The position numbers and the translations under genes were made by a program. The notes under the pieces are model-generated. The model had not been told where the DNA came from. It searched no databases and was given only the letters and a program-made list of their open reading frames with translations. From a virus (Duplodnaviria; Heunggongvirae; Uroviricota; Caudoviricetes), in the IMG/VR virus record IMGVR_UViG_2531839130_000007, positions 1-45,691 of that record: a DNA stretch of 45,691 nucleotides, one strand, 5' to 3'. Positions within the stretch are counted from its first letter, which is position 1, and each line of letters begins with the position of its first letter. Below are positions 21,562 to 42,014 of this stretch, piece after piece.

Positions 21562-21576
21562 AAAATCAGGATATTT

Positions 21577-23016: not shown

Positions 23017-23794
23017 GGTTCTGACGGATGCCGTTAACTACTACGTAAATCACGGGTGGGATAGCGAAAAATCATTGCTCGAATGGTGCCGGAAACTCCG
23101 TGTAGCCGCTCAGCGAGAAACCCCTGATGATACCGTAGCCAGAAAACATCTCACCGCTATCTACAGCCGTCTTGTCATCGACGGCGGGGCATTACGGGAT
23201 CAGCCTCCTGACGGCCCTAAAAAAATCACTGTTGAAAAACTGAAACCTGAGTTTCGCAAGGAACTCGACAGGCGAATTTTCGCCAGTGCCAACCTGATAA
23301 AACTCAACCGCGAACAGGCTATCGAGAAAACCATACAGCGTTTTCAGGGGTGGGTTACGTCCATTCCCCCTGACGGGGTGAGCGAAATTGATCGCCGGGA
23401 AGTGAAGGCCGGGTTTCAGAAATCCGTGAAGGATATGGATTTTATCAGTCGTCGGGTGGCAATTGACCAGGGGCATAAGCTGGCAAGCAACGTTAAGTAT
23501 CTGCTGGCTGTTCAGAGTGGAGCGATTGCTCTGCGCTGGCATTCGAACTGGCGGCGTCCGGGCTACAAATACCGACAGGACCACAAAGAGCGCGACGAGA
23601 AAATTTATCTCCTCCGCGATTCGTGGGCACTGGAGCAGGGACTGATTAAGCCCGTATATGGTTTTTATGACGAAATCACTGCTGCCGGGGAGGAGGTTTA
23701 TTGCAGTTGCGATGCTCTGCCGATCTACGCCCCTCAGAAACTACCCGACGAATTTTTAACGGAGAAGGGCAAACGTGAGTTTAACAGAACTTGA
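22961..23794 (+). CDS. Head morphogenesis / minor head protein
   Basis: Start at ATG 22961 (AGGAG upstream), overlapping the portal 3' end; 277 aa; position matches Mu F / SPP1 gp7-type proteins. Confidence 0.5.
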   Translation: MAISSRAVRKKKRIRTLYEVLTDAVNYYVNHGWDSEKSLLEWCRKLRVAAQRETPDDTVARKHLTAIYSRLVIDGGALRDQPPDGPKKITVEKLKPEFRKELDRRIFASANLIKLNREQAIEKTIQRFQGWVTSIPPDGVSEIDRREVKAGFQKSVKDMDFISRRVAIDQGHKLASNVKYLLAVQSGAIALRWHSNWRRPGYKYRQDHKERDEKIYLLRDSWALEQGLIKPVYGFYDEITAAGEEVYCSCDALPIYAPQKLPDEFLTEKGKREFNRT

Positions 23795-25097
23795 AGTGGC
23801 AGAACGCATCAGGGACGGAACCGTACCGTCTCCGGTGAAATTTTCCAACATGTGGCTGGTGAATTTGCGAATAACCGGAACCGGGCTTGCCTATCGCGCC
23901 GGGGAGAAAGAGCACGTCTGGCGTGATCCAAAGCTCTATCTGAATGAGGAGTTTTTAAGGCGATGCAATGGCCTTCCGGTTATCGCAAACCATCCTGATG
24001 ACGCAGTCCTGACGGAGGAGGATTTTAAATCGCGGATCGTCGGTAGTGTCATGCTGCCGTATATCCGGGGTGACGAGGTATGGGCAGTGTGCCGTGTTTA
24101 CCTTCAGAGCATTGTTGAAGAAATCACTGAGGGGGGTGTTTCGACAAGCCCGACGGTGGTGTTCAACAGCACATCAGGAAATGTGGAAGTACAGGAAGGT
24201 GACACCAATTTTTTAATTGAAGGTGTTCCTTTCCTTGTTGATCACATCGCCCTGGTGACGAAAGCCCACGGCTCGCTGGGCGTGTGGGATAAAGACCGGA
24301 TCCCCGCAGGGGTTGAAGTGACAAACACAGGTGAAATCGAGATGAAAAAAGAAGAACTCCAGGCCCTGTTACAGGGGGTGGTGAACGATGCCCTGAGCGG
24401 CATTAATCAGAAAATCGATGGAGTAGTCACGCGCATGGACTCACTGGAACAGCGGGACAAAGCGCGGGCGGATGCCGAAGAGCAGGCGAAAAAAGAGGAC
24501 GAAGAAAAGGCCAAAGCCGATGAAGCCGCAGAGGAACAGCGTAAAGCTGATGAAGATGCGACAAAGAAGGCGGAAGAAAAAGCCAAAGCTGACGAGGCAG
24601 CAGACAAAGATGCTGAGGAGAAAGCAAAGGCTGATTCCGAAGCAGAAGAACAGCGTAAGGCCGACGAGGAGGCAGAAAAAGAACGCAATGATTCTGCCCT
24701 GGCAGAAGCACAGGCAAAAGCCGACTCCGCATTCAGTGCCTGCGGTAAAAACGCGCCAGCACCGTTTTCTGGCGAAAATGCGCTGGACTACCGTAAGCGT
24801 GCGCTAATCGCTATGCAGAAACACTCTCCGGCACATAAGGACGTCAATATTCGCGCGATAGCGGATTCTGCAACGCTGGCTGTGCTTGAGGACGCAATTT
24901 TCAGTGCCGCCCGTCAGTCCATCGAAAAAGAAATGATGAGCACGCAGGGGCAACTGCATAAACGTATCCGCAGCGACGAAGCCGGACGTCGCATTACTGA
25001 ATATCAGGGTGATCCGAACGTCTGGTTGGGTGCCTTCAAAATTCCGGGGCGTCGTCTGGCAAAAATTAACACTCAAGGGAGCCTGAACAATGGCTGA
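23775..25097 (+). CDS. Putative scaffolding (possibly protease-scaffold) protein with K/E/A-rich repeats
   Basis: 440 aa; central tandem AEEKAKADEAA-type repeats (24470-24690) typical of scaffold proteins; lies between portal/minor head and capsid genes. Confidence 0.5.
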   Translation: MSLTELEVAERIRDGTVPSPVKFSNMWLVNLRITGTGLAYRAGEKEHVWRDPKLYLNEEFLRRCNGLPVIANHPDDAVLTEEDFKSRIVGSVMLPYIRGDEVWAVCRVYLQSIVEEITEGGVSTSPTVVFNSTSGNVEVQEGDTNFLIEGVPFLVDHIALVTKAHGSLGVWDKDRIPAGVEVTNTGEIEMKKEELQALLQGVVNDALSGINQKIDGVVTRMDSLEQRDKARADAEEQAKKEDEEKAKADEAAEEQRKADEDATKKAEEKAKADEAADKDAEEKAKADSEAEEQRKADEEAEKERNDSALAEAQAKADSAFSACGKNAPAPFSGENALDYRKRALIAMQKHSPAHKDVNIRAIADSATLAVLEDAIFSAARQSIEKEMMSTQGQLHKRIRSDEAGRRITEYQGDPNVWLGAFKIPGRRLAKINTQGSLNNG

Positions 25098-25707
25098 TAT
25101 TAACTTTCATCCGTTTAAAAACCGTGGAGCATTTGGTGGCCTTTTTAACGTCGAATCCCGTGGGCTGATGCAGGGGGATGCGCAGGATGATCCGGCAATT
25201 CGTCTGCAACTTTGCTCCGGTCGACTGGACAGCAAAATCACTGATCCGGTATGGGGTGGCGTTGGAGTTATGGAGTGCATTGCTCCCGCGAAAGACAGCG
25301 TTAACGGCGCGGTAATTAAGCAGGCTACACAAAACGCATGTAACGCCTTTACGGTCTTTAATCAGGCATTTCATGGTATTACCACGCCGGATAATCCGGT
25401 GCCGTTATATCTCGCGGGTGGCTTTGTTCACTATTACCGCGTTGGCTCAGGCGCCCGCATTCCTCTCCCGGTCAGTGCAGAAGTTGTTGCGTTGGCTGAT
25501 GGCAATAACACCGTTGCTGCCAGTGGCTTTGTGTGGGACCTGACGAAAAACATGGTTGATGTTTATTCGGGATCACCCGGCGCTAATCCGAAAGTGGATA
25601 TTAAGCTGCTGATGGTTTCAGTTGACGGAAACCTGACGGTGAAAAAAGAGGATGGCGGTAACGTTGTCTGGGAAATCGGCAAACCGTGCGGCCTGTTTTT
25701 AATTTAA
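25090..25707 (+). CDS. Hypothetical head protein
   Basis: 205 aa between scaffold and major capsid genes. Confidence 0.4.
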   Translation: MADINFHPFKNRGAFGGLFNVESRGLMQGDAQDDPAIRLQLCSGRLDSKITDPVWGGVGVMECIAPAKDSVNGAVIKQATQNACNAFTVFNQAFHGITTPDNPVPLYLAGGFVHYYRVGSGARIPLPVSAEVVALADGNNTVAASGFVWDLTKNMVDVYSGSPGANPKVDIKLLMVSVDGNLTVKKEDGGNVVWEIGKPCGLFLI

Positions 25708-25721
25708 GGGGATATTAATTA

Positions 25722-26750
25722 ATGAGTGCATTTACTCCTGCGACTACTATTGTGTCGCCGTCAATGGTGCTGCCGGAAATGATCGTGCAACAGAGCATGG
25801 CTTCCGGTGCGTTTGAAGTCCTGGCTGGCGGTGCTCCAGCGGTAAAAATTAGTTCCAGTGATTTGATGGTCTATCAGAAATATCTGCGCATGACCTCGCA
25901 GGCGCAGGTCGGCCAGTCTCTGCCGGGCCAGTTACCGTCTTCCAGTATCTCTGGCGGCTATGACGGGATGATGACTTACCGAATTTCTTCCCGCTCGCAA
26001 TACAGCTATCTCGATACTGATGCAGCAGATCGCTGGGGCTATTCTCTGATTGAAGGCCTGCGCCTGGCTAACCGTCAGGGACACGCTCAAATGTTGCGTA
26101 ATATGCTGCTGTATGGCGTGAATGCAGCTAATAACGAGGGGATCACCAACTCCCCGAACGCAGTGACGCTGAATCTGGGCAACGACAGCAAAGGGAATGA
26201 TTCATATACCACCTGGGATTCCGGTGAGATGGCTAAATTTATGCTTGGCCTGATTGCTGACCAGAAAACCCGCATGTTGCTGCTGGGACAGCCATTAACG
26301 ACTGTTATTCTAAGCCCACAGCGATTCATGAAGGCGCTGGAGTGGACAGGAATTGTTGAGCTGACCAGTTACCAGCGTCCTGGTGGTGGTACCGGAACGG
26401 TGGGAACGATGGTTAAAGACGTCGCCGATAAGGCGACAGGTGATGACATCATTTTCTGCCAGGACGACACGCTGATTGGTAAAGGCGCTGGTGGTAATGA
26501 CCTGATCATCGTTACGAACCCGACGATTGAGGTTCCGGAAGCGCGTCACACCATTAACACCAATATTTTCTCCACGCTGGTACCTAACCAGCAGGCCGTC
26601 AACGTGATGTTCTGTGATATGGCAGCGCCGACGGAAATTCCGTCCCCTATGCCGGATGGCGGCATGACCACGTTGTATACCATGCGTGCGACGCCGGGCT
26701 GGAACTTCCGCCCTGAGGGGATCACCCTGTTGTCTGCCAAATACGCATAA
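25722..26750 (+). CDS. Major capsid protein (putative)
   Basis: 342 aa, strong-looking SD (GGGGATATTAATTA ATG), located after the scaffold. Confidence 0.6.
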   Translation: MSAFTPATTIVSPSMVLPEMIVQQSMASGAFEVLAGGAPAVKISSSDLMVYQKYLRMTSQAQVGQSLPGQLPSSSISGGYDGMMTYRISSRSQYSYLDTDAADRWGYSLIEGLRLANRQGHAQMLRNMLLYGVNAANNEGITNSPNAVTLNLGNDSKGNDSYTTWDSGEMAKFMLGLIADQKTRMLLLGQPLTTVILSPQRFMKALEWTGIVELTSYQRPGGGTGTVGTMVKDVADKATGDDIIFCQDDTLIGKGAGGNDLIIVTNPTIEVPEARHTINTNIFSTLVPNQQAVNVMFCDMAAPTEIPSPMPDGGMTTLYTMRATPGWNFRPEGITLLSAKYA

Positions 26751-26765
26751 ACGTTCAATCTGATA

Positions 26766-27278
26766 ATGCGGGGAGCTAAATGCTCCCCTTTTTTGTGGGA
26801 AAAATTTATGAAGCTCTACATCGCTAACTGCTCACGTCAGCCGCACACGTTCAACTACAAACTCCCCGAAAAAACGCAGTCGTTCGGTGTGACAATTCCG
26901 TCCGGACGTCAGCATATGATCGAAAATCAGTCCGATATTATCGACCACATCATCCGACAGCATGAGCCTTATGGATTCCAGCGTTGTGACAAGGTGGACA
27001 AGAATTTTTCCGGTATCTGCTATTCCATCGATAAACCTGTGAGCGTCGGTCGCATTGAGGATTGCGCGGAGCAGAAAACGGAAAATCTGGAATCCCTGTC
27101 AGAAGAAATTCTCGCAGCCAGCGCCGTATCGCTGAATAACGCAGTGGATCAGGCAGTGATTCAGAGTGGCGAAAAACCTCAACCGGGTGGTATTGAAATG
27201 GAAATCACCGGGGAAGCGATTAACACTGAACAGGAAAATCCGCCCAGCACAAAGCGAAATATTAAGGTTAAAAAATAA
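26766..27278 (+). CDS. Hypothetical head-tail region protein
   Basis: ORF track; likely true start at ATG 26808. Confidence 0.4.
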   Translation: MRGAKCSPFLWEKFMKLYIANCSRQPHTFNYKLPEKTQSFGVTIPSGRQHMIENQSDIIDHIIRQHEPYGFQRCDKVDKNFSGICYSIDKPVSVGRIEDCAEQKTENLESLSEEILAASAVSLNNAVDQAVIQSGEKPQPGGIEMEITGEAINTEQENPPSTKRNIKVKK

Positions 27279-27718
27279 TGACCTTGCGTCCGTCACTGGA
27301 GGGATTTATTCGCTTTGTTCGTGACGACATGAAAGTACCGGTTCATGCTATTGCTGACGATGATCCGACGCTGGAATGTTGCTTTCAGTCTGCGATGGAG
27401 CTAATCCCTCATGATCAGGGGCTGGAGCGTTTACCCATCATCTATGTGCGAACGGTTTATAACGCTGCCGCCTCATTTCTCCTGAATTTCGCTCCCGGCT
27501 CGTGGTTTGCCGACCTGAGAAAAAAACTCAACATTGGGAAACTGGCTACTGGGCTTGTCAGTGCGGCAGCAGACCAGGGGACATCGGGTTCGATCACCAT
27601 CAGCGATGCGCTGAGTAATCTGTCTTTGCTGGATTTGCAGATGTTACAGGATCCGTATGGACGACAGGTTGTTGCGGTGCTGATGCAGATGGGCACGGTA
27701 TGGGGTTACACGCCATGA
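27278..27718 (+). CDS. Hypothetical head-tail joining protein
   Basis: 146 aa, start overlapping the upstream stop. Confidence 0.4.
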   Translation: MTLRPSLEGFIRFVRDDMKVPVHAIADDDPTLECCFQSAMELIPHDQGLERLPIIYVRTVYNAAASFLLNFAPGSWFADLRKKLNIGKLATGLVSAAADQGTSGSITISDALSNLSLLDLQMLQDPYGRQVVAVLMQMGTVWGYTP

Positions 27719-28155
27719 AACTTTGTTTTGGGGTTATCGACCAGCCGTATGACTACGGCGACGAGCCGGGAAAAACCACGTTTGACGTAGCCTGTGACCT
27801 CGAGGAGCGATACGAAATTTTTACGCACTTCTGGGAAATGCATAAGGACGAGATTATCCAGGAGGCAGGTACTGAACTGGCATACCAGTTGGTCAATCAC
27901 TTCAAGTATAAGGCTCCGCTACCTGGCGAGCATTTTCTGGAAGGGAGCGGGAAGATTTTCCATATTTTTCTTGAAACTGAAGAAATGGCCGGGATGACGA
28001 TTAACGGAAACCCTGTGCCAACTCAGGCCGCGCTACTGGGCGTTAACTCCAGGCTTAAGGATAAATATACCGGAGAGCGGCGTCCGTCATTCATAGACGG
28101 CGGCCTGTTTAAGGGCAGCTTTATAGCGTGGATAGATAATAATGCCGAGTCTTGA
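27700..28155 (+). CDS. Hypothetical head-tail joining protein
   Basis: 151 aa in the packed late operon. Confidence 0.4.
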   Translation: MGLHAMKLCFGVIDQPYDYGDEPGKTTFDVACDLEERYEIFTHFWEMHKDEIIQEAGTELAYQLVNHFKYKAPLPGEHFLEGSGKIFHIFLETEEMAGMTINGNPVPTQAALLGVNSRLKDKYTGERRPSFIDGGLFKGSFIAWIDNNAES

Positions 28156-29086
28156 GGAATTAGCCGAACAGCACAGTTCGCAGCTCTCGTCCGTTCTTAA
28201 ATCCGCAGTTGAAACCATCTCGTCAGACCAGGAAATCACGTTCAGGCTCTATGTCCGGCAGGTTCTGCCGCTGGATGGCTTTGTCTATTGGGTTAATGCG
28301 GAAATCATCAGTTGCGATGAACTGTGTCGCCTGAATATTGAGTCACCAACTCGTCTGAAAATCAAAGGCAGCCTGCATCGTCAGGTTATTGCGATTCAGG
28401 ACGAGTCTGTCTCGAAGGATGTGAACAACATTATTTTCACGCCTGTTCAGCAGGTTGATGATTTTAATGTGGAAAATCCCGATGCGATCTATCTCGGTGA
28501 GTACGGAGGCGTCCAGTTCGCTTTTTCACGAATGGAGAGCCGTTATCAGCAGTCGGGTATTTTTCATTATCGCGGCATGGCGATTTTGCCAACCATGCGT
28601 TCCCAGATTATCGACTGCGAGGAGGATATCAGCGACGAGCAGATCATCTCTAACAGCATCCCGATCTGGCTGCAAATGAAAGATGCCGCGACCGTGTATC
28701 CGTCTTACCTGGTACCGCAGAACCTTCGCCCACCGTATATCGCGGTGGATGTTCGCAACAGTATTCCGTTGCAGGTGGCTCCCGTTGTTTTCGGCGGTGA
28801 GCGGTTTCAGCTCGTCCAGGATTCGGTTCGCCTGACGCTTTACGGATTCAGCAACAAAATGGCGCTGGATCTTGTCGACTCGGTGGTGAACAGGGCGCTG
28901 GAGGAGGAAAGGTTTGGTGTAACCAATATTCCGGTGGTTCAGGACGCAAAGTCGGGACAGGTTGAAATCAACGCTCTGGCGAAGAAAAAGATTGTCGATT
29001 TTGACGTGAATTACTACCAGAGCACCGCCCGGGAAATGTCCCGGCAGTTGATTGAAAAAGTTATTTGTAAATATGAGGTTAAATAA
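28142..29086 (+). CDS. Hypothetical neck / tail completion protein
   Basis: 314 aa immediately upstream of the sheath gene. Confidence 0.4.
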   Translation: MPSLEELAEQHSSQLSSVLKSAVETISSDQEITFRLYVRQVLPLDGFVYWVNAEIISCDELCRLNIESPTRLKIKGSLHRQVIAIQDESVSKDVNNIIFTPVQQVDDFNVENPDAIYLGEYGGVQFAFSRMESRYQQSGIFHYRGMAILPTMRSQIIDCEEDISDEQIISNSIPIWLQMKDAATVYPSYLVPQNLRPPYIAVDVRNSIPLQVAPVVFGGERFQLVQDSVRLTLYGFSNKMALDLVDSVVNRALEEERFGVTNIPVVQDAKSGQVEINALAKKKIVDFDVNYYQSTAREMSRQLIEKVICKYEVK

Positions 29087-30423
29087 TGGGATTTAATATC
29101 GTCACGGTGAATGTGTCCCAGAGCATCGGGGCCATTCCCTCGAATTTGCAGCAGATGTCTGCGGTTCTCTCGTTTGGTTCCACGACTCATGAGCCGGGAA
29201 AACCCGTATTACTCACCCGTAATCAGGACATTAACGAACTGGTTAAAAATCCGATTGCTGCCTTGTCGGCGGCTGCCGCAGGAAAATCTGCGGCAAACGT
29301 CACCGTTACGATGACGCTTCCGGAAGGGAGCAACATCCGACGCGAAAACAGTTCTGAGGTGAAAATTGTTGTTTCCGGGTGTTCGCCCGACGCGTGGAAT
29401 GGCGAATATACTGCTACCGTCACGGATGAAAAAACACTGACCTGGACTATTACTGGTTCTCAGCTTTCCGGTTCGCCAGTGACACTGGGGCAGTTTTCCA
29501 TTGCTGGCAGTGAAAATCTGGTGACGGCAGTAAACACGTTTTTTGCCCAGGGAAATTCAGTTGGAATTTACCTGCTGGAGCTGGGAGTACAGAAAGGCGG
29601 AGTCAGTAAGGAAATCGCTGCGCTGAAATCTTATATGGAAGATCCGCTCCTGCGTTTTTATGCGTATCTGGTGCCGCAGCCGTGGGATGGTGACGCAGAA
29701 TTTATCAGTCTGGCAAAACTCCACACCGCCAACGAAGCGATGCAGTATTTCTTCGTGCTGACGAAAACGCCGGACGACATGAATTACGTTTCGCCTTATG
29801 CCGGTATTAAGTCGGTTATTGCAACGGCGGATGATACGTACCCGGCGACAAACGCGGCAGCAGCCGTAATGTGGAACTATGTTTCCGCATCACCTTCAGA
29901 AATCAACAAGGTGCCGCCGATGGCATTTCGCTATCTGCAGGCGGTAAACGCCCACAAGGGCAAAAATTCCATTCTGGCCACGATGACAAAGCAGAATATT
30001 AACTACGTCGATACGGGTGCTGAGGGTGGAATTTCCAACACGATTCTGGTGAAAGGCGTTACCAGTGACGGTAACGATATGACGTACTGGTATTCCGTAG
30101 ACTGGGTGCAGATTAACGTCGATATGCAGCTCGCCAACACGGTGATCAACGGCAGCAATAACCCAATTAACCCGCTTTACTACAACCAGGACGGAATCGA
30201 CCGTCTACAGCAGGTCGCACAGGCGGTGTTCAATACGGGCGTATCTTACGGCCTGGTCAACGGCCAGCCTGTCGTCGATGCAGTGCCTTTCCGCCAGTAT
30301 ATCAACACTAATCCGAATGATTACGGTATCGGGCGTTATGCAGGCCTTTCGGCCTCCTATACGCCGATGCGCGGATTTGTCGAAATCATTTTTAACATCA
30401 ATGTGACAATGCAGCTTTCGTGA
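29086..30423 (+). CDS. Contractile tail sheath protein
   Basis: 445 aa followed by a 147-aa tube-sized gene, a frameshift-type chaperone pair and a tape-measure gene: the canonical myovirus order. Confidence 0.6.
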   Translation: MGFNIVTVNVSQSIGAIPSNLQQMSAVLSFGSTTHEPGKPVLLTRNQDINELVKNPIAALSAAAAGKSAANVTVTMTLPEGSNIRRENSSEVKIVVSGCSPDAWNGEYTATVTDEKTLTWTITGSQLSGSPVTLGQFSIAGSENLVTAVNTFFAQGNSVGIYLLELGVQKGGVSKEIAALKSYMEDPLLRFYAYLVPQPWDGDAEFISLAKLHTANEAMQYFFVLTKTPDDMNYVSPYAGIKSVIATADDTYPATNAAAAVMWNYVSASPSEINKVPPMAFRYLQAVNAHKGKNSILATMTKQNINYVDTGAEGGISNTILVKGVTSDGNDMTYWYSVDWVQINVDMQLANTVINGSNNPINPLYYNQDGIDRLQQVAQAVFNTGVSYGLVNGQPVVDAVPFRQYINTNPNDYGIGRYAGLSASYTPMRGFVEIIFNINVTMQLS

Positions 30424-30434
30424 GGGACTGAACC

Positions 30435-30878
30435 GTGCCTAATCCAATGATCCCCGTTGGCACCCTTAACCGGGTTCGCGCCAGCGTTAAATTCACCTCT
30501 CATTCCGAACTGAATGTGTCCGCCTCATTTCTGGCAAAAGAAGGCGTCGAATTGTCCTTTCAGGGCAATATCACGGAGTTTTTACCCGCTATGACGGGAG
30601 CTGTGCAGTCGCCGCAGCCATACATGATTTTACAGGCGCGTGTTCATCTGCTGCGTAGCCAGGCGCTGGGAAAACAATTCAAGGCGCAATGGGAAAAAAA
30701 CGCCACGATCGGCGACGCAAAAGTGTATAGCGACAGCACGGTATTCGGTGACTTCGATATCTATAACACGGCGATCACCAACGTGCAGGATATGACCTTC
30801 GCTGGGGGCGAGCCGGGTGTGGCCATCACCATTACCGGTACGTATTACATCAACTCTGAAATGTGGGATCTGGTATGA
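30435..30878 (+). CDS. Tail tube protein
   Basis: 147 aa directly after the sheath gene. Confidence 0.55.
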   Translation: MPNPMIPVGTLNRVRASVKFTSHSELNVSASFLAKEGVELSFQGNITEFLPAMTGAVQSPQPYMILQARVHLLRSQALGKQFKAQWEKNATIGDAKVYSDSTVFGDFDIYNTAITNVQDMTFAGGEPGVAITITGTYYINSEMWDLV

Positions 30879-31492
30879 AAATCTCCCGAAATCTGAATCT
30901 GATTATTCCTGTCCGGACAGAAAAGGGTAACGGCTGGATCCATGCCACGCCGATCAGCAAAGAGGTGTTTAAAGAGCATTTCTTCATTCTGAGTAAAACT
31001 TTTTCTGCCATTTTTTCTGAAGGTCTTGGCGTCGTTGCGGGTCCGCGTATCGCCTGCCTTATGCTGGAACGGATCTCCTCAGATATGAACATCTGGGATG
31101 GCGAAAAGGGCGTTCGTAATACGCTCGTGAATGAAATCATTCGCCTTGCGAATCTGGTTTACCCAGTCGAAGGGAAAGGTTATGACACGCTCCCGCTTGA
31201 TATGGCGCTGGAGCGCGGCATCGTTGAATTTGATGATGTGGCAGGTGAACTCGTTTTTTTTACATGCGTCTCGTCGATAAACACACCGGAGCAGACGGAG
31301 CAGATGATGCTGGCAGTCAGTGGAATGTGGAACAGTCGCACTTCATCCTTGAGTCTTACGGAATGGATTGCTTCATTGCCGACATTGAAGCCTGTCGCCA
31401 GTTCTGGCGCGACGGCGAGCACGTTATCAGCGACATCCTCGACTACTCAGCCGGAGACGGATTCAGCGACATCTGGGCAAATTCCGGTCTGA
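30875..31492 (+). CDS. Tail assembly chaperone (G-like)
   Basis: Start ATG 30875 overlapping the tube stop (ATGA); contains a T8 slippery tract at 31254-31261 with a second frame open downstream. Confidence 0.5.
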   Translation: MKISRNLNLIIPVRTEKGNGWIHATPISKEVFKEHFFILSKTFSAIFSEGLGVVAGPRIACLMLERISSDMNIWDGEKGVRNTLVNEIIRLANLVYPVEGKGYDTLPLDMALERGIVEFDDVAGELVFFTCVSSINTPEQTEQMMLAVSGMWNSRTSSLSLTEWIASLPTLKPVASSGATASTLSATSSTTQPETDSATSGQIPV

Positions 31493-31566
31493 ATGTAAAA
31501 ACAGCAGCTCAGTTTCGTGAGCTGCGTAAATGCACGACGCCGGGAGGTGTATTGAATGTCAGGTAA
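31249..31566 (+). CDS. -1 frame extension of the tail chaperone (GT-like product)
   Basis: Frame -1 relative to the chaperone opens at 31249 inside the T8 tract and runs to 31566, overlapping the tape-measure start. Confidence 0.35.
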   Translation, partial: TRFFYMRLVDKHTGADGADDAGSQWNVEQSHFILESYGMDCFIADIEACRQFWRDGEHVISDILDYSAGDGFSDIWANSGLNVKTAAQFRELRKCTTPGGVLNVR

Positions 31567-33544
31567 TCAGATGCCAGTTCTGACACTGGACGTTAATGAA
31601 GAACATCTTAAGCGACTTGAGGCGATATTTGAAAAGTATCGCAACGGGCTGATGATTGGCCCTGCCGGTACGCCTCTTAAAATACCTTCAAATATAGATC
31701 CGGGAGGTGGCGTCCGGCAGACAACTACAGGCGGAGATGCCAATCAGGCTCCCAGGAAACCATCTTCACCCGCGCCAGTTTCGGCTGCTTCCACTGATGG
31801 ACGTTTAAGGGATGAAAAAGGGCGCTTTGTTGGAAGCGGGAAAACACCTGATTCGCTGGTGAGCAACTATAAAGGTCGCGGCGAAACGATGTTTGATAAG
31901 TACCTCAGCGGGCTGGGTAAAAACGCTCAGGGGACGCTGAAAACTTACAAACAGATCAATTCAACGCTTAAAACGACTAATTCCCGGTTAAAAAGCCTGT
32001 TTAAAACCACGGTTTCGTGGGGGGCGAAAATAGCTGCAATAGGGGTTGCGGGGCCGTTTGGCTACGGCTATATGGCAAGTAAAGTCGCAGCACAGTATAG
32101 CGTGGCTCAGGGGTTAGGGGTGGAAACCGCCCAAATGCAGGCCGCACGTGCCACCTATTCGCCATATTTTTCTGGCACAGAAGATCTGGTTCAGCATCTG
32201 GCTAACGCACAGAAAAACCCGAACGATCCAAACTATGCTGGCCTGGTTAGTCTTGGAATTGATCCGCGAGATGGTGCTGCAAAGAATCTGCCCAAACTTA
32301 TGAGCGCGCTTGCATCTCTCGTTAAGCGATATAAAGGTTCAGGACTTACTCAGGGGATTCTCAACGGACAAGGGCTTGGATTTGTTGATGTCGCGACAAC
32401 TAACCAGGTGGAAGCGAATCTGGACAAGATCCCCCAACTGAACGAGAAATTTGCATCAAATACCAGGTTGCTCGGTGCTTACCTCACGCCAGCTATGCAG
32501 TCAGGTTATCAGGACACGGTGAGTAACCTGATGGTAAATGGAAACAGAATATCAAATTCCTGGTATGCAGCTCTCGCCAGATATAACCCACTAATCACAG
32601 GTGCATCTGATGGGCTGACATCCAATATTGAAGGTTTTCTGAATGGTGGAAATTTTCAGAAAATTCTCACTGAGGCTGGCGAAGGGCTGGAGAAACTTGG
32701 TAAGTGGCTGAATAGCGAACAATTTAAAAATGATCTTGACGATTTTTCTCTGGCGGTGAGCCGGATTGCAAAAGCAATATGGTCAGCTATCAAATGGATC
32801 GGTGGGGAAGATAAATATCTCCCCGGAACCGGAGTTGGTGCTGAACAGGCAGATCCAGTTCTTGCGGCATTTGGAAATAAATATCTCAGTGGTGCGTTGC
32901 CGGGAGCAAACCCGATGACAAATCAGTATACGGGTGAGTTTTATAAACAGGATGATGTATATAAAAATTACCGTATGCCTAATGATTTAAAGAGAAATAT
33001 TCAGAACTTTGTAGAGCAAGCCAATAATACTTATCGACTTCCTAAAAATATGATGTCAGCTATCGCAGAAGTTGAATCTTCGTGGAATCCTCTGGCAAGA
33101 GGAACTCCAGATGAAAAAGGTAGATTCGCTAAGGGGTTGTGGCAATTCTGGGATAGCACCGCAAAACAGTATGGTCTGGTGGGTGATGATGTTTATGATC
33201 CAAATAAATCCACTCTTGCGGCTGGCCGCTTTTTAAATGATCTGAATCGGCGTTATAAAGGCGATGTGGCAAAAATGCTTACGGCATATAACGGAGGTCG
33301 TATTGATAGAGATGGAAATCTAAGTTTGAGAATGGAGACTGTAAAATATTTAATTAAATTATTGCCTCAGATTCAGGGAGCCTTGGATCAACACCCTGGT
33401 ATTATGAGTCAGCTAAGAAATGCCAGAGATAACCTTCAGGGTGCTGGCAAAAATGCCCGCGCAATAATTGAGCTTCAGGTGCGACAATCGCCGGGTTCCG
33501 ACATACTGGCACAACTCGCCGGAACGCAACAAATACCGGGGTAA
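31556..33544 (+). CDS. Tail tape-measure-position protein with C-terminal lytic transglycosylase-like domain
   Basis: 662 aa; C-terminal motifs AEVESSWNPLA, GLWQFWDSTA and AYNGG resemble SLT domains. Confidence 0.55.
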   Translation: MSGNQMPVLTLDVNEEHLKRLEAIFEKYRNGLMIGPAGTPLKIPSNIDPGGGVRQTTTGGDANQAPRKPSSPAPVSAASTDGRLRDEKGRFVGSGKTPDSLVSNYKGRGETMFDKYLSGLGKNAQGTLKTYKQINSTLKTTNSRLKSLFKTTVSWGAKIAAIGVAGPFGYGYMASKVAAQYSVAQGLGVETAQMQAARATYSPYFSGTEDLVQHLANAQKNPNDPNYAGLVSLGIDPRDGAAKNLPKLMSALASLVKRYKGSGLTQGILNGQGLGFVDVATTNQVEANLDKIPQLNEKFASNTRLLGAYLTPAMQSGYQDTVSNLMVNGNRISNSWYAALARYNPLITGASDGLTSNIEGFLNGGNFQKILTEAGEGLEKLGKWLNSEQFKNDLDDFSLAVSRIAKAIWSAIKWIGGEDKYLPGTGVGAEQADPVLAAFGNKYLSGALPGANPMTNQYTGEFYKQDDVYKNYRMPNDLKRNIQNFVEQANNTYRLPKNMMSAIAEVESSWNPLARGTPDEKGRFAKGLWQFWDSTAKQYGLVGDDVYDPNKSTLAAGRFLNDLNRRYKGDVAKMLTAYNGGRIDRDGNLSLRMETVKYLIKLLPQIQGALDQHPGIMSQLRNARDNLQGAGKNARAIIELQVRQSPGSDILAQLAGTQQIPG

Positions 33545-33547
33545 AAG

Positions 33548-34216
33548 ATGTCACTTAATTACTTTGGGCAGGCTTTCAAACTGGCGTTTGAAGTCTCGCC
33601 CATTCTTTTGGTTGACGGCATAGCGTCGAAAATTCCCGGCGGGGTAATGCCGATTGCTGTTTTGACCGAAGGCCTAAGCATAGCGAACGGTCTGCTGCAT
33701 GGAGAGATTCATACACGCTCGATGGTGGCATTCACGCCAATGGCCGGGACAACGCTGGTACAGCAGGATATCTGCAACCTGAATTTCTATAACCAGGTAA
33801 CGGCAGCGAATGCGACCGTCAGGAAGCCTAACCGGGTAGTCATGCAGATGATCCGTCCGGCATCAACGGAGGACGGTGGCTACACCACGAAGGGGATGAC
33901 GTTTACGGCGCTGAAAATGGCGCTTGATATGCATAACCAGTATGGCGGTTGCTACACCGTTCTGACTCCCTCGTTTATCTACACGCGCTGCCTGATGCGG
34001 TCGTTTATCGATACATCCGGTTTCTCTGAGCAGAACAAGCAAGTGCAGCACACCTGGCAGATTGAGTTTGAGCAACCATTGTCGTCTGTCGAACAAACAG
34101 TAAAGACGCTGGCGAGCGTTCTGGATAAATTTGATAAAGGGATGCCGTCAGACGGGCCGCTATCGTGGTCAGGTATTAAGAACCAGGTCGTGCAGGAGTT
34201 TGGTATTGGCTTATGA
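33548..34216 (+). CDS. Tail / baseplate assembly protein
   Basis: 222 aa; position only. Confidence 0.4.
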   Translation: MSLNYFGQAFKLAFEVSPILLVDGIASKIPGGVMPIAVLTEGLSIANGLLHGEIHTRSMVAFTPMAGTTLVQQDICNLNFYNQVTAANATVRKPNRVVMQMIRPASTEDGGYTTKGMTFTALKMALDMHNQYGGCYTVLTPSFIYTRCLMRSFIDTSGFSEQNKQVQHTWQIEFEQPLSSVEQTVKTLASVLDKFDKGMPSDGPLSWSGIKNQVVQEFGIGL

Positions 34217-34479
34217 CAACGTTAATTCCTTTCAAACCGGACGGGCGAGGTCCGTTTCAGTTCACGGCCAGAATCGGAGAATATGAAACATTCGCCCGCG
34301 TTCCGTTTAATCTGTACGCAAACCGTTACTATCTGGAACTGAAAGACAGTTCTGGCAAGGTCATTGTATATACGCCTCTGATTGCTTCCCCTGATGGTTA
34401 CGATATTAATCTGGCGCTTCTATTTGCGCCGGGAAGGCTCATTTTTCGTGAAAGTACTAATCAGTTTGAGGTTTCGTAA
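34213..34479 (+). CDS. Small tail protein
   Basis: 88 aa, translationally coupled to neighbours. Confidence 0.4.
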   Translation: MTTLIPFKPDGRGPFQFTARIGEYETFARVPFNLYANRYYLELKDSSGKVIVYTPLIASPDGYDINLALLFAPGRLIFRESTNQFEVS

Positions 34480-35486
34480 TGCGTTATTACCGCCTGGAAA
34501 TCATTAACCCTAAAACAGGCAAGCCGCCAGTGGATAGCAACGGAAAACCTATCGGGCCTTTTGATACCAGTAAGACACCAGGTTGTGGGTTACATGTTGA
34601 ATTTGACTTTGAAGTAACCGGCCTGGATGTAGTCAGGTCTGGCACGATGCTGACGATCTACGGATTACCAATCGAGATGTTGAAGCAAAGTGTGAATTTG
34701 CAGGGGTGTCTGGTCCGTATGAAAGCGGGCTTTGTTGAGGGATTGCCTTTGGCAAACCCGGAACAACAGGGTGAAGTAATCTATGGTGAAATTTATCTGG
34801 CCTACGCCAACTGGATTGGCACAAACCAGACTTTAAATCTGGTCATTAACCCCACCATACGCAAAACCGATGACGGTAAACCGTTCTTTATCAAGGGCGA
34901 AGGGCGAACCGGGGAAAAGGTGGGTGATGTTATCTCCCGCGCGTTGCAAAAGGCATTTCCGAATAAATTGATCGATTGTACCGTCAGCGACAGCCTCGTT
35001 TTGCCAGAGCCGTGGAATGGAACCTACGAAGACATTGGTTCGCTGGCGATGGTTCTCCGTAGTGCTTCAATCGCAATGATACGCGATGAGAAATATAGTG
35101 GAGTTACCATCAGCATCCTTTCAGACAGAATACGAATTTACGATAACGCGTCAGCAAAGTGGGGAGAGCCCAAAACAATTCATGCCCATGAACTGATTGG
35201 GCAGCCGACCTGGATAGCGCCGTTTACTGTCAGTTTCAAATGTCCTCTGCGGGGCGATATCAGGTGTGGTGATGTGGTTAAATTGCCGGAGGGGCTTTAC
35301 TCCGGCGCTGCGTCGATTGTGATGGCTAACACAACAGCCCCCAGTGTTATCTCCAAAAATTCGACCACGTTCACCGGAAAATTTCTGGTTAAGTCTGTCA
35401 GACACATTGGAGCATATCTTACTGCTGACGGCGATGCCTGGGTGACGGTTTTCGAGGCATATGCTGAGAACTGGGTGAGGGGGTAA
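34479..35486 (+). CDS. Baseplate hub-like protein
   Basis: 335 aa immediately upstream of the spike gene. Confidence 0.4.
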   Translation: MRYYRLEIINPKTGKPPVDSNGKPIGPFDTSKTPGCGLHVEFDFEVTGLDVVRSGTMLTIYGLPIEMLKQSVNLQGCLVRMKAGFVEGLPLANPEQQGEVIYGEIYLAYANWIGTNQTLNLVINPTIRKTDDGKPFFIKGEGRTGEKVGDVISRALQKAFPNKLIDCTVSDSLVLPEPWNGTYEDIGSLAMVLRSASIAMIRDEKYSGVTISILSDRIRIYDNASAKWGEPKTIHAHELIGQPTWIAPFTVSFKCPLRGDIRCGDVVKLPEGLYSGAASIVMANTTAPSVISKNSTTFTGKFLVKSVRHIGAYLTADGDAWVTVFEAYAENWVRG

Positions 35487-36199
35487 TGTCAAACGCTCAA
35501 AAATTACCGCTTCTCCGAACGTTGTCGGAGATGATGACCAGCTCTGGTAACCAGCAAGCCGAGCTGAAAGGACGGGAATTACCCTGTCATGTGGTGGCGG
35601 TGAACGGTCAGATAGTCACTGTTCAGTTCGATATGTTGCCAGAGGGGATCACCTTTCCTCAGATAACAATACCTGTGGCCACGTTCCCGTATATCCGTTT
35701 CCCGATACAACCAGGAGATCAGGGAGTGACGATCGCCGCCGATGTATCCCTGCGCGGTGTGTCCGGATTAGGGACAGGAATGGCGACTCTTTCCTACTCG
35801 ATGTCGCTGACACCGCTGTTTTTCGTGCCTCTGGCAAACAAGGAGTGGTCCGAAGAAGATCCGCGAAAAATTGTGTTATACGGTCCTGACGGCGCAATTA
35901 TTAAAACAGAGGACGGAAGCAGCTCGGTAACGGTGGCGCCGGAAGAAATCAGGCAAAAGTCGAAGGTAGTTTACCTCGAGGCCGAAGATATTTTCCTGAA
36001 CGGTCAAATTCACCTCAACGGACCGATCGTCCAGGACAAAGCCCAGATGAAGGATACAACCGCTTCGCTGATTGGTCCTCTTAAGGTCGAGAAAGATGCA
36101 GTTATCAACGGCGTGAGCGCCAGCAGCCACAGTCACGATGTGACTGGTGTTCAAAGCGGTGGCAGTACGATCACGTCGAAGAAACCAAATCCGGGTTAA
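35486..36199 (+). CDS. Baseplate spike protein (gpV-like)
   Basis: 237 aa; Gly-rich C-terminal segment with SHSH histidine motif typical of spike apexes. Confidence 0.55.
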   Translation: MSNAQKLPLLRTLSEMMTSSGNQQAELKGRELPCHVVAVNGQIVTVQFDMLPEGITFPQITIPVATFPYIRFPIQPGDQGVTIAADVSLRGVSGLGTGMATLSYSMSLTPLFFVPLANKEWSEEDPRKIVLYGPDGAIIKTEDGSSSVTVAPEEIRQKSKVVYLEAEDIFLNGQIHLNGPIVQDKAQMKDTTASLIGPLKVEKDAVINGVSASSHSHDVTGVQSGGSTITSKKPNPG

Positions 36200-36241
36200 T
36201 ACCGGTTCATTTCACTTTAAATACTACCCATAAAACGAAAA

Positions 36242-36278
36242 CCCCGACTGTTGGCCCAGTCGGGGTTTTCTGTTTCTG
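36242..36278. terminator. Strong intrinsic terminator after the spike gene
   Basis: 9-bp stem ccccgactg/cagtcgggg with loop ttggcc, then ttttctgtttctg. Confidence 0.7.
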
Positions 36279-36303
36279 ACCTTGAATAAGGCAAGGAGAA
36301 GTC

Positions 36304-36441
36304 GTGTTTGATTTTAGCAAACTGATTCGGGAGATTCGAGTTATGGCTGAAAAATTATCCACCTGGAAGTTTTTGCTTATTTGGTTGGTCTTTCTGATTC
36401 TGGCGTCTGGGTATTTTGTTGGCCAGATCCGATGGTGGTGA
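36304..36441 (+). CDS. Candidate small membrane protein (45 aa, not in the ORF track)
   Basis: GTG start 3 nt after AAGGAGAAG; product VFDFSKLIREIRVMAEKLSTWKFLLIWLVFLILASGYFVGQIRWW has one hydrophobic helix. Speculative. Confidence 0.25.
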   Translation: MFDFSKLIREIRVMAEKLSTWKFLLIWLVFLILASGYFVGQIRWW

Positions 36442-36448
36442 GGGCACG

Positions 36449-36796
36449 ATGAGAACATGGGGCCGCGTAACCGACGCGAACGGCAACAAAAAATGGGTTG
36501 CTATAGAATCTGACGCCAACGGTGATTTCTCCTACGGCTGGCTGACGACGCTCATTCAGACGTTAAAGCTGGGGTTGGGGGAGTCGCCGTTTTACGCGAA
36601 TTACGGCATTCCAGCGCAGCAGTGCATCGTGCAGCAGATTTACCCGGACTACTATGTGAACATGGTTCAGCAACAGTATGCCGGGTATTTTGCATCGCTG
36701 GCAATTTCAAAAGTGGATGGGGCAGAGAACCCCACCTATAACATCGATGTTGTGTTTTTTAACGGAACCAGTTACCGGACGCAGGTTCCGGTTTGA
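36449..36796 (+). CDS. Small baseplate protein (gpW-position)
   Basis: Start at ATG 36449; 115 aa, the size and position expected for a gpW-like wedge protein between spike and J-like genes. Confidence 0.4.
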   Translation: MRTWGRVTDANGNKKWVAIESDANGDFSYGWLTTLIQTLKLGLGESPFYANYGIPAQQCIVQQIYPDYYVNMVQQQYAGYFASLAISKVDGAENPTYNIDVVFFNGTSYRTQVPV

Positions 36797-37335
36797 GGCA
36801 AGTTTTCGGGCATCAATTGGGCCAGTGGCGTATTAAGAAGTTCATCGCGTGGCATGACAATCCATCCACTTTTGCGTAGTAAGTGAATTGCCCATTCTGT
36901 GGTTATAACTGAGCCTGATTTGTGATGCTCAATGTGGGTAACCGATCCGTTTCTGACGCGCATGATGATGTCAACATTCAGAGGGGATTGTGTGCTGGTA
37001 GTTTCTTTGCGTAGTTTCTTTTCGCACTCGATGAAGTATCGGCGGATCTGGCGTCCTTTTTCGTTGCGCTCGACCATTGCCAGTTCTTTGGCGGTGTCCA
37101 GGGTGAGGTGGTAGTCCTTGCGGTTGTGGCCTCCCCGGCCTTTTGCTTCCCGAATTTGGGAAGCAATCACATAGTCCTGATTTTCTACGAATTCATACTC
37201 GCTAAGTCGCTCGGTGATCCAAGTGGCAAAGCGCTTACCTACTTCGAGAAAGGCATGCAGATCGCGAGCGTTGCATAGAAGGGTGGTTTCGTTTGAGATA
37301 GTTCCGTTGAAAACGGGGATCAGTTGGGTTGTCAT
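36772..37335 (-). CDS. Phage antirepressor (Ant, KilA-C-type domain)
   Basis: 187 aa; block DYHLTLDTAKELAMVERNEKGRQIRRYFIECEKKL matches the antirepressor C-terminal domain as remembered; AAGAGG upstream of ATG 37335; opposite strand to the tail operon. Confidence 0.65.
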   Translation of the reverse strand: MTTQLIPVFNGTISNETTLLCNARDLHAFLEVGKRFATWITERLSEYEFVENQDYVIASQIREAKGRGGHNRKDYHLTLDTAKELAMVERNEKGRQIRRYFIECEKKLRKETTSTQSPLNVDIIMRVRNGSVTHIEHHKSGSVITTEWAIHLLRKSGWIVMPRDELLNTPLAQLMPENLPQTGTCVR

Positions 37336-37614
37336 GATGACCTCTTGTATCTTTTTCGAAGAAGAACCAAAGTGGCGTCGGGAGGTTCGAAACGGCTACA
37401 AGTACCGCGGACTTATTCCCCTTTCGGGTGTTGTATTCGTCGCCCTCCCGACATTGATCGGGGATGTGGTTGCACATGATGCAACCACTGAAAAAATAGG
37501 CATAAAAAATCCAACACTGACGGGGTTGGTTGCGTACCGCTTGTAAGAGGTTTCGACGCCTCAGTTCGGATTGTAGCCAGAGTTGGATGCCGTAGTCAAT
37601 TTAATGATAGTGCA

Positions 37615-38088
37615 TCATATCTTTTTGCCCTCAAGATGGCACTGGTAAGACGTTCCGCCGTGTTCATAAATCGCCCAATCAATAGCTTCTCCAGAAATCC
37701 GATTAATAGTTACGTGAGATTGAGGAATCCAATTAACTTTATCCCTAGATGCCTCGACAGTATATTCTATACGTAGGTCATTAATTGTTGGGCGATTGAC
37801 TCTAAACCAAGTATCATCACGGCCTAATGATTCGTTGTTTTGCATTATAATTACTGATTCAGTAAACCACGTTGTTTTTTTACCATCGGCAACACATGCA
37901 TTTCCAGAGTCAATTCTAATATTAAAGCATAATTTATCATTTAAAAGGTAAGGTTGGGGCCAGATTGCGGAGGTTGCGGTGTCGTTGCTATTAGATGGCT
38001 TACATATTATTCTTGATATGTTAGATGAGTGTGAAGAAAAACTCACAAAAAGAAGTAGGGATAAAAATTTCAATTTCATAAATATCAC
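37615..38088 (-). CDS. Secreted protein of unknown function (AT-rich cargo gene)
   Basis: 157 aa with N-terminal signal-like segment (M)KLKFLSLLLFVSFSSHS, several Cys; local sequence clearly AT-richer than the tail genes. Confidence 0.55.
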   Translation of the reverse strand: MIFMKLKFLSLLLFVSFSSHSSNISRIICKPSNSNDTATSAIWPQPYLLNDKLCFNIRIDSGNACVADGKKTTWFTESVIIMQNNESLGRDDTWFRVNRPTINDLRIEYTVEASRDKVNWIPQSHVTINRISGEAIDWAIYEHGGTSYQCHLEGKKI

Positions 38089-38097
38089 CGCCTGATT

Positions 38098-38646
38098 TTA
38101 CATGTTTTCTTTACAGGAATTGATTGCAGCTTTATATGCTTCCGGGAGGCCATCTAATGGGAAGAATAGTTTTTGTGGTTTTTCTTTGCTTTCAGCTGGC
38201 GGAGTGTACCAAAAAGAAAAACTACCTTTCCCTTTAGCTTTTAACAAATCACTAATCTTTAATGAGCTAATAGGACTGAACAAGTAACCCTCATTGATAG
38301 ATGGGGTTGTTATAGAGTCCTGCTTTTGTTGTCCGCTGATTTTATAACTTACAGGAAGGAACGGTGGTAAATCCATTTGTTTATATCCAATAAAATGATT
38401 GATAGTTACATCACCGGGCTCACATTGAGTTAATGGTGATATATCAATAAATAAAGTTGATTTATCCTGTGGCAATTTGGATTCAACACCAATACGATAA
38501 GCCATAGTGGTAGGCATGGTAAATTCAGCATAATACCATTTACCGAACTGTTGAATGTCATTCATTCTCTCTGTGGCATCAATTGCATGAGAAACACCAG
38601 AAAATAGCAGTGAGCTAATCAAAATCCCTAATGAGTTAAATTTCAT
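38098..38646 (-). CDS. Secreted protein of unknown function (AT-rich cargo gene)
   Basis: 182 aa with signal peptide MKFNSLGILISSLLFSGVSHA; AGAGGA 4 nt before the ATG; 10 bp upstream of the next gene in the same orientation. Confidence 0.55.
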   Translation of the reverse strand: MKFNSLGILISSLLFSGVSHAIDATERMNDIQQFGKWYYAEFTMPTTMAYRIGVESKLPQDKSTLFIDISPLTQCEPGDVTINHFIGYKQMDLPPFLPVSYKISGQQKQDSITTPSINEGYLFSPISSLKISDLLKAKGKGSFSFWYTPPAESKEKPQKLFFPLDGLPEAYKAAINSCKENM

Positions 38647-38655
38647 AAAATCCTC

Positions 38656-39894: not shown

Positions 39895-40504
39895 GAAAAT
39901 TCTCCCTGCTTATCCATTTGTGCAGTACAGAGATGATCCGAATGTTGTTGCGTTCTTTGATGCATACAATGAAATTGCTCAGGAATACCTCGATTCACTC
40001 AACAATCTGGCATTGCCATGCTGGACATCGGAATCAATAACCGGGCAATTGCTGGACTGGATTGCACTCGGGATTTATGGCGTTGAAAGGCCTTTACTAC
40101 AGGTTTCCGAGGAGGCTATTGCACGAGGCGCATACGATACCATTGAATACAATACGATCCCGTATGCAGCAATGCGGAATTATGTTCCGGGGCAGGCATC
40201 GTATGTACCTGATGATTATTTCAAACGAATATTAACGTGGAATTTTTATAAGGCTGACGGTTCGCATTTCTGCATTGACTGGTTAAAGCGACGTGTGGCG
40301 CGGTTCATTCATGGAAAAAACGGAATAGACCCGCCGTTGCAGCACACTTTTGATGTGAGTGTGACAGTATCGGACAGCGTTTTTTCTATTCAGATACCAG
40401 AGTATGGCGATGGTATAGGCTATTTTCTGAAAGATGCCATTGACCAGAAATATGTAAAATTCCCTTTTATTTATTCCTATGCAACAACGGTGATTCAAAA
40501 ATGA
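39878..40504 (+). CDS. Baseplate / tail protein (I-like)
   Basis: Start at ATG 39878 overlapping the upstream stop; MQYLTEKILPAYPFVQYRDD...; 208 aa. Confidence 0.45.
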   Translation: MQYLTEKILPAYPFVQYRDDPNVVAFFDAYNEIAQEYLDSLNNLALPCWTSESITGQLLDWIALGIYGVERPLLQVSEEAIARGAYDTIEYNTIPYAAMRNYVPGQASYVPDDYFKRILTWNFYKADGSHFCIDWLKRRVARFIHGKNGIDPPLQHTFDVSVTVSDSVFSIQIPEYGDGIGYFLKDAIDQKYVKFPFIYSYATTVIQK

Positions 40505-42012: not shown

Positions 42013-42014
42013 TC

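Follow-up and report, generated by a model that had tools for sequence, protein, structure and literature searches.

Does a run of eight Ts within a phage tail gene mark a programmed frameshift that allows the gene to specify two proteins, or is it a homopolymer error or switch? We asked this of a 45,691-nucleotide (nt) stretch of DNA, IMG/VR virus record IMGVR_UViG_2531839130_000007, which was analysed at its full length and is referred to here as the window. It represents a Rac-like prophage with a myovirus structural module. Between the presumed tail tube gene and the tape-measure gene, a T8 tract at 31254-31261 lies where a putative tail chaperone frame is overlapped by a second long open reading frame (ORF) in the -1 frame. 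The initial annotation had described this arrangement, and its coordinates and frames were confirmed in the window. It had also recognized the expected place of the conserved tail chaperone frameshift, but it favored a homopolymer indel, either an on/off switch or a sequencing error, over a programmed shift. Comparison with related sequences leads us to the other answer: the gene probably (we put this at roughly 80%) encodes a tail assembly chaperone produced as two isoforms through a programmed -1 shift at T_TTT_TTT (31255-31261).

The tract was read directly in the window as TTTTTTTT. The zero-frame codons over the run are GTT (31253-55), TTT TTT (31256-61) and then ACA, giving a perfect -1 heptamer of the X_XXY_YYZ type, T_TTT_TTT, at 31255-31261, in phase with the zero frame and with the second ORF overlapping in the -1 frame. 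The features at the site are the following.

30875 to 31492, plus strand: zero-frame gene for the putative short ('G-like') isoform, an ORF with a full-length match to phrog_11810 (E=2e-84), made up of the shared N-domain (residues 1-129) and a 76-residue tail.
31254 to 31261, plus strand: T8 tract over codons GTT TTT TTT, containing the heptamer T_TTT_TTT at 31255-31261 and kept in relatives.
31249 to 31566, plus strand: -1 open stretch with a predicted 101-residue C-terminal ('T-like') domain from 31261, matching phrog_14324 (E=4.5e-62) and conserved in distant relatives.
31243 to 31248, plus strand: AGGTGA, a Shine-Dalgarno-like purine element 6 nt 5´ of the heptamer that contains the -1-frame TGA, a candidate 5´ stimulator.
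31264 to 31266, plus strand: ATG in the -1 frame, 3 nt past the junction and clade-specific.

The zero-frame gene extends from the ATG at 30875 to a TGA at 31490-31492 and encodes 205 residues. The slip site is located at 63% of the gene, the distance from the heptamer to the zero-frame stop is 231 nt, and exactly 76 codons follow the T run. In the -1 frame, a TGA at 31246-48 sits just upstream, such that the frame is open only 4 codons ahead of the junction; it then remains open from 31249 to the TAA at 31564-66, with 101 codons after the run, and reads TRFF/YMRLVDK... (the slash marks the junction). The +1 frame has six stops across the span downstream of the run. The predicted trans-frame product, obtained by joining 30875-31261 to 31261-31563, would have 230 residues and the junction ..GELVFF/YMRLVDK.... 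The two PHROGs matched by the 205-residue ORF (phrog_11810; 201 positions, full length) and by the -1 ORF (phrog_14324; 97 positions) are both listed as 'unknown function'.

We examined the locus in 14 close relatives (82-100% nt identity), comprising phage Rac-SA53, 'Actinobacillus' phage pPE4 and 12 E. coli chromosomes. The T8 has the same length and the same position within the gene (nt 380-387) in all 14. All also have a 205-residue zero-frame ORF and a -1 frame that opens 4 codons 5´ of the junction and remains open for 98-101 codons; the +1 frame carries 4-7 stops. Variable sites at the first, second and third zero-frame codon positions numbered 10/20/21 in the overlap, compared to 21/11/85 in the N-domain. 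This split indicates that third-position freedom is suppressed in both frames, as dual coding predicts.

More distant DNA was collected through tblastn searches of phage records and look-ups of contigs encoding the exact proteins; single-protein scans of IMG/VR gave two loci only. The resulting set of 12 lineages (~25-46% amino acid identity) consists of Chronis/RothD, vB_YenM, PdC23, QDWS, one IMG/VR contig and seven metagenome contigs, and includes Klebsiella, Yersinia, Pantoea and Shewanella phages. An in-phase slippery motif was present in 12/12, as T8 in nine, T7 in PdC23, C_TTT_TTT in locus L027 and G_TTT_TTT in locus L031. Counting the clade of the window, T8 is thus found in 10 of 13 lineages. 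The zero-frame tails in the distant set span 52-112 codons, the -1 ORFs span 97-156 codons and end 0-11 nt from the start of the next gene, and all 12 lineages have the same synteny. The Phe codons at the junction are TTT in 26/26 cases, compared to 23/67 (34%) for the other Phe codons in the same genes (pooled P about 8e-13), and this holds even in the Shewanella phage, with a G+C (GC) content of 64%. The base preceding TTT TTT is T in 11 of the 13 lineages, again even at 64% GC. The suggestion in the initial annotation that this is the place of the conserved tail chaperone frameshift is thus supported by synteny and by conservation of the slip site in 14 close relatives and 12 distant lineages.

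The -1 ORF could instead be an independent gene overlapping the first, translated alone from the ATG at 31264 as a free protein of 100 residues. In the E. coli clade this ATG is found 3 nt after the junction, with AGGTGA 15 nt upstream of it, and PHROG 14324 models a stand-alone protein of 97 residues. The ATG is also why some annotators call a separate 100-residue ORF. However, in all 12 distant lineages the -1 ORF lacks an ATG within 200 nt of the junction (the first is 213-420 nt downstream, or there is none), and the -1 ORF of Yersinia phage vB_YenM has no start codon of any kind. Given these distant lineages, the ATG at 31264 is a clade-specific accident. Additionally, the -1 product is conserved from the junction (FFY..) onward, in most lineages the run is preceded by only a few codons of open -1 frame, a 15-nt Shine-Dalgarno spacing is poor, and in-frame fusion alleles, described below, show one working chain. 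A free -1 protein is very unlikely on these grounds. As a conserved mechanism, independent initiation at ATG 31264 was rejected, since the distant relatives are without a start there.

The pattern extends across a large family. Using the 227-residue in-frame fusion variant P0001 as the query, a search of 1.84 billion representatives returned 626 clusters at E<=1e-3; the family comprises at least 626 clusters at 50% identity. Most of the matches are 186-205 residues long and align only to residues 1-130 of the fusion, which indicates that their own zero frame runs far past the junction. Residues and tails were counted in 127 representatives at 50% clustering. FF is found at the junction in 124 of these, followed in 120/124 by T, I or M, each with a codon starting with A, and the zero-frame tail of these 124 representatives is 46-100 residues long (median 59). 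The motif T[EA][FWY]..SL is present in 120/127 representatives and a C-terminal [IVL]P-x in 76/127. In the other three (P0205, P0244 and P0261), YF replaces FF, and they are consequently without a run of six or more Ts at the junction.

Both C-terminal tails are conserved. When the window was aligned against the distant lineages, the zero-frame tail reached z scores of 4-8 relative to shuffled sequences and the -1 tail z scores of 7.6-14. Conserved residues in the zero-frame tail include S133, W152 and L168, and the motif YG..F..D...R..WRDG....LD[YW]...GF..FR of the -1 domain is kept in distant relatives. Column conservation in the zero frame is 0.43-0.57 at residues 130-175 and then declines to 0.33 and 0.13. 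For the -1 frame the values are 0.37-0.38 at 130-160, increasing to 0.53-0.64 at 161-205. In these alignments, the constrained part of each frame appears to overlie, as a tendency, the relaxed part of the other.

An AlphaFold2 model of the 205-residue product, built from a 17-sequence alignment, had a mean predicted local distance difference test score (pLDDT) of 86.6, with residues 1-170 above 90 and residues 175-194 below 50. Helices were predicted at 119-135, across the shift site, and at 138-152, followed by a short strand and a helix at 161-167, and residues 130-170 pack into the domain. Since the scores stay above 90 to residue 170, the first ~40 residues of the zero-frame tail belong to the predicted globular fold, and the Ser/Thr-rich stretch alone is predicted to be a disordered linker. 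The tail had been described in the initial annotation as Ser/Thr-rich low-complexity sequence throughout. This holds for approximately residues 170-200 but not for residues 130-170, which are predicted to form ordered helices.

These data also bear on the possibility that the frameshift is real while the 76-codon continuation of the zero frame is accidental and functionless, in which case the short product would effectively be the N-domain. The last ~35 residues are indeed Ser/Thr-rich and predicted to be disordered, and conservation falls after residue 175. However, in 124 of the 124 representatives with FF the zero frame remains open for 46 codons or more, whereas the +1 frame gathers 1-11 stops, and the conserved tail residues, the motifs T[EA][FWY]..SL and [IVL]P-x and the confident packing of residues 130-170 into the domain are all contrary to an accidental tail. 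We consider this explanation highly improbable.

A few database proteins run from the N-domain into the -1 domain within a single frame, and the two meet at VFF/Y, as predicted. In the corresponding DNA, the run is T9 in L022, L032 and L034/L035 (carrying P0001) and T6 in L033, and all of these loci keep the alternative tail ORF intact in the other frame. The fusion P0001 was found on six contigs, compared to 814, 676, 229, 152 and more contigs for clusters of the 205-residue form (thousands in total). The other 'fusions', P0002-P0004, switch frames at scattered positions and resemble assembly errors. The fusion alleles show that both parts can function as one chain, and that tract-length mutants arise but do not spread.

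Such alleles, together with the general tendency of homopolymers to acquire indels, are what could be cited in favor of T8 as a sequencing error or as a phase-variable on/off switch, the true or active gene being a single fused ORF. Against this, the 14 genomes and phages, assembled independently of one another, all have an identical T8, which recurs in 10 of 13 lineages, the 205-residue forms dominate, the zero-frame tail is conserved and predicted to be folded, and P0002-P0004 shift at scattered sites. The explanation is thus extremely improbable. Sequencing error was rejected on the basis of the invariance of T8 among relatives. A phase-variable tract is expected to vary in length among close genomes, and among the 14 close relatives T8 was invariant, with T9 rare elsewhere. 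The initial annotation had stated that its indel proposal would be refuted by related phages with the same T8 and conserved downstream sequence in both frames; such relatives were found, and its preference for an indel or sequencing error over a programmed shift is not supported. What survives of the on/off idea is that rare T9 and T6 alleles fusing the frames exist, though they are not the norm.

Slippage could take place during translation or during transcription, and because the protein outcome is identical, sequence data cannot separate ribosomal from polymerase slippage. If RNA polymerase slippage on T8/A8 were the main route, a U would be added to part of the mRNAs and normal translation would give the fusion. 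In favor of this route, 10 of 13 lineages retain T8, which is one base more than the heptamer requires, and the RNA polymerase of bacteria slips where 9 A or T stand in a row (PMC5009743). No downstream element that would stimulate ribosomes was detected (see below), and T9 alleles persist in databases. On the other hand, the run in PdC23 is exactly T7, in phase, and L027 and L031 have only T6, which are short for polymerase slippage and still usable as -1 ribosomal sites. The extra T in the T8 lineages is also simply the third base of the Val GTT codon. Transcriptional slippage on A/T runs is documented for Thermus dnaX, the Shigella mxiE/spa genes and IS630-family transposases, with runs of at least 9 (PMC5009743). 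As in those cases, a homopolymer of 8-9 Ts could give trans-frame mRNAs, and T9 alleles of the chaperone gene exist; unlike in those cases, some members of the chaperone family have only T6-T7, fitting a ribosomal heptamer better. Judged from the sequences, the T6 and T7 lineages would favor the ribosomal heptamer, and we regard polymerase slippage as the main route as unlikely, but not negligible.

Several results limit, or weigh against, the case for a programmed shift in a chaperone gene. First, the window contains 26 runs of T7 or longer, compared to 21.8 +/- 5.4 expected, such that a single run is unremarkable if taken alone, and off-frame ORFs of ~100 residues are also present at other places in the window. 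With the run and the off-frame ORF each within chance in the window, the argument rests on the comparison with relatives, where by our reading of the alignments the combination of run, phase and conservation of both frames exceeds chance. Second, in the Pfam scan, no match was found for either ORF at E<=0.1, and the Phage_TAC_, GpE and lambda GpG families were not hit. A profile search likewise found no relative of the chaperone among PDB sequences. Foldseek against the PDB returned nothing at E<0.1, with chance-level proteasome matches only. Against BFVD, the best Foldseek match was uncharacterised (E=1e-4; TM-score 0.55/0.74), and the matches annotated as tail assembly chaperone or 'pre-tape measure frameshift protein G' were weak (E 0.04-0.9; TM-score 0.3-0.45). 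The AlphaFold2 model of the fusion, for which the alignment had only 12 rows, was poor (pLDDT 66.8), with a helical C-part at 50-60.

Third, no downstream RNA stimulator was detected. The single-sequence fold of 31254-31360 had a z score of +1.65, RNAalifold on seven relatives gave -9.5 kcal/mol with no compensatory pairs or covariation, and windows of 45 and 70 nt in nine lineages gave z scores of -1.1 to +1.1, with no sign of RNA structure. GA-rich elements are present upstream of the heptamer in most lineages, where they coincide with conserved Glu-Gly-Glu codons; given this overlap, AGGTGA (31243-48) might or might not have a stimulatory role. Moreover, U_UUU_UUU is reported to be less shift-prone in E. 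coli than A_AAA_AAG (PMC5009743). Fourth, the slip site is not close to the zero-frame gene's 3´ end. In curated phage (SEA-PHAGES) chaperone frameshifts, the mean distance from the slip site to the zero-frame stop is 26 nt (PMC10274946), compared to 231 nt here and 46-100 codons across the family. The initial annotation was therefore correct in calling a continuation of about 76 codons unusual. The PRFect predictor mostly fails at slip-to-stop distances such as 231 nt (PMC10274946). Finally, the slippage itself, its efficiency, its ribosomal or transcriptional origin, the existence of both products and the chaperone function are all things that we infer from sequence.

The genomic context is consistent with a chaperone gene. 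The neighboring genes are the following.

29086 to 30423, plus strand: tail sheath gene (phrog_205 tail sheath, E=1.3e-53).
30435 to 30878, plus strand: presumed tail tube gene, 147 residues, assigned from its position between the sheath and chaperone genes (no family match names it a tube gene); its stop overlaps the chaperone start.
31556 to 33544, plus strand: gene for a tape-measure-like protein of 662 residues with a C-terminal lytic transglycosylase domain (Pfam SLT, E=1.3e-20).

The order of sheath gene, tube-position gene, chaperone gene and SLT-domain tape-measure gene is the same in all relatives, and all keep a neighbor of 145-148 residues in the tube position. The tape-measure gene, with its ATG at 31556, shares 11 nt with the end of the -1 ORF, and the RothD homologue of the SLT-domain protein is annotated as a tape measure protein. 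The relatives among the Yersinia phages are myoviruses as seen by electron microscopy (PMC9224151). The chaperone region is 100% identical to that of E. coli W and is carried by 92 of 5,426 complete E. coli genomes.

We compared the locus to known systems. Similar to lambda G/GT, the gene is immediately upstream of the tape-measure gene, the -1 shift would occur at an in-phase heptamer, the N-terminal part would be shared by both products, and no start belonging to the -1 ORF itself is conserved. No strong downstream RNA stimulator is evident in lambda, and the same is true of this locus. Unlike in lambda, the heptamer is U_UUU_UUU rather than G_GGA_AAG and the tail is contractile, and there is no detectable sequence or Pfam similarity. 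In terms of position and architecture, the locus thus has the hallmarks of G/GT (location, overlapping -1 ORF, conserved slip site and no own start in the distant lineages); contrary to what is expected of such a pair, it does not belong by sequence to a described family and its slip site is far from the zero-frame stop. The lambda shift occurs 'near the 3´ end' of G (PMC5009743, which summarises the work on gpG/gpGT of Levin et al. 1993 and Xu, Hendrix and Duda 2004, 2013, 2014), whereas here 76 further zero-frame codons (46-100 in the family) are conserved and, by prediction, partly folded. For this reason the short form is not a mere truncation of the long form.

Similar to P2 gpE/gpE+E´, the locus belongs to a myovirus with the order sheath, tube, chaperone and tape measure, it has a T-rich -1 heptamer, and the ORF for the extension continues up to where the tape-measure gene begins. 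The P2 heptamer is T_TTT_TTG, and P2 E is small (~91 residues) with the shift near its end; the frameshift was reportedly described by Christie et al. in 2002, and the P2 case is mentioned in PMC5009743. Unlike in P2, the chaperone has 205 residues, the shift falls at 63% of its length, both frames code over a long overlap, and there is no match to the P2 GpE Pfam family. The E. coli dnaX tau/gamma system also has a -1 shift at a homopolymeric heptamer, and as in that system, an upstream Shine-Dalgarno-like element (AGGTGA, 31243-48) might act here. In dnaX, the shift gives a truncated product, a strong stem-loop follows downstream, and the Shine-Dalgarno element lies 10 nt upstream. At our locus, by contrast, no structure was detected downstream, the element lies 6 nt from the heptamer, and it is the longer product that would arise from the shift.

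We therefore return to the two-isoform chaperone and propose the following course of events. Most ribosomes would read through the run to give the 205-residue protein, in which the N-domain is followed by two helices completing the fold, then by a Ser/Thr-rich linker predicted to be disordered and, at the C-terminal end, by a short conserved peptide (..IPV). A smaller share of ribosomes would move back by one base while on the two Phe codons and then read Tyr; alternatively, an mRNA with one extra U from RNA polymerase slippage would be translated normally. The slip product of 230 residues would share the first 129 residues and carry a different, conserved and probably helical C-terminal domain of 101 residues, whose coding sequence would end over the start codon of the tape-measure gene. 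If the locus works as lambda gpG/gpGT and P2 gpE/gpE+E´ do, both isoforms, present in a set proportion, would cover the tape-measure protein and bring in tube subunits, and neither would be part of the virion.

A more tentative idea, possible though in our judgment rather less than evens, is that the frameshift does not append a T domain to a finished G but switches between two alternative C-terminal modules, both under purifying selection, that share 46-100 codons. The zero-frame arm would complete the globular fold and carry the C-terminal ..[IV]P[ST], and the -1 arm would swap those helices for a different domain. If true, the two forms would have different core structures and probably different partners. 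T8, one short of the range for polymerase slippage, may also let RNA polymerase and ribosomes both set the ratio.

The annotations inspected give no indication of the frameshift. In the 14 close relatives, the sole call is a 618-nt hypothetical coding sequence (CDS), followed by a gap before the tape-measure gene, and no frameshift is annotated. The papers found on Rac-SA53, Chronis/Roth and vB_YenM/Yersinia phages mention neither a frameshift nor a chaperone. In the near-identical phages Chronis (L015, 3631) and RothD (L016, 3697), the annotated tape-measure starts differ by 66 nt, and a 105-nt 'hypothetical' CDS of RothD (3603-3707) is in fact the 3´ end of the -1 chaperone ORF.

We also noted several peculiarities of the related records. 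In E. coli ETEC1748, ETEC4077 and STEC346 (L009, L010 and L012; locus positions 821-1504), a 227-residue 'DUF2213' CDS precedes the chaperone gene and ends exactly at the usual end of the tube gene, which suggests that a deletion of ~6 kb took out the capsid, sheath and tube genes; the remnants still have the T8 and two intact frames. The record for 'Actinobacillus phage vB_Apl-pPE4' (L002, PP818812) has 91% nt identity to the E. coli prophage module of the window, and 'Hujiaoplasma phage zrk29-1' (H76, OP650936) shares both its record length (47,902 bp) and its match with Shewanella phage vB_Sb_QDWS. The host labels of PP818812 and OP650936 look doubtful.

The window itself is mosaic. The structural module at 19010-36273 is collinear with E. 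coli W at 96% identity, and the regions at 1-19000 and 36270-45691 contain early Rac-type genes (recE, kilR, ydaT and others) that are 90-94% identical to those of E. coli W and arranged differently. Directly after the large terminase gene, the product of 21577-23016 (21580-23016 in L036) matches Pfam Phage_portal_3 (E=2e-12), and the E. coli W homologue bears the RefSeq/PGAP label 'anti-CBASS protein Acb1 family protein'; this looks like a portal protein under a misleading name. Adjacent tRNA genes for Thr(TGT) and Gly(TCC) are located at 16244-16397, upstream of the lysis genes, and the pair is also present in E. coli W. An A8 run at 19383-19390 (plus strand) lies within the small-terminase ORF (19152-20243), which also holds a 120-residue off-frame ORF (19687-20049).

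The finding is not a surprise in principle: it is a known phage strategy in a chaperone family that had gone without annotation, and what is new is the atypically long dual-coding overlap. In the RefSeq E. coli genomes and phage records inspected, the pair is listed as 'hypothetical protein', with 60-160 nt before the tape-measure gene left unannotated, and recognising the frameshift corrects the annotation of a family of at least 626 clusters that is carried by 92 of 5,426 complete E. coli genomes. The locus also exposes a blind spot in prediction, as both predictors and curators assume that the slip lies some tens of nt at most from the zero-frame stop, and here it lies 231 nt upstream. It is a clean natural case of long, ancient dual coding on the same strand, with structure in one frame placed over less conserved sequence of the other. 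Finally, it offers a handle on tail length and on the assembly chaperones of poorly studied temperate gut myoviruses (Chronis/Roth-like).

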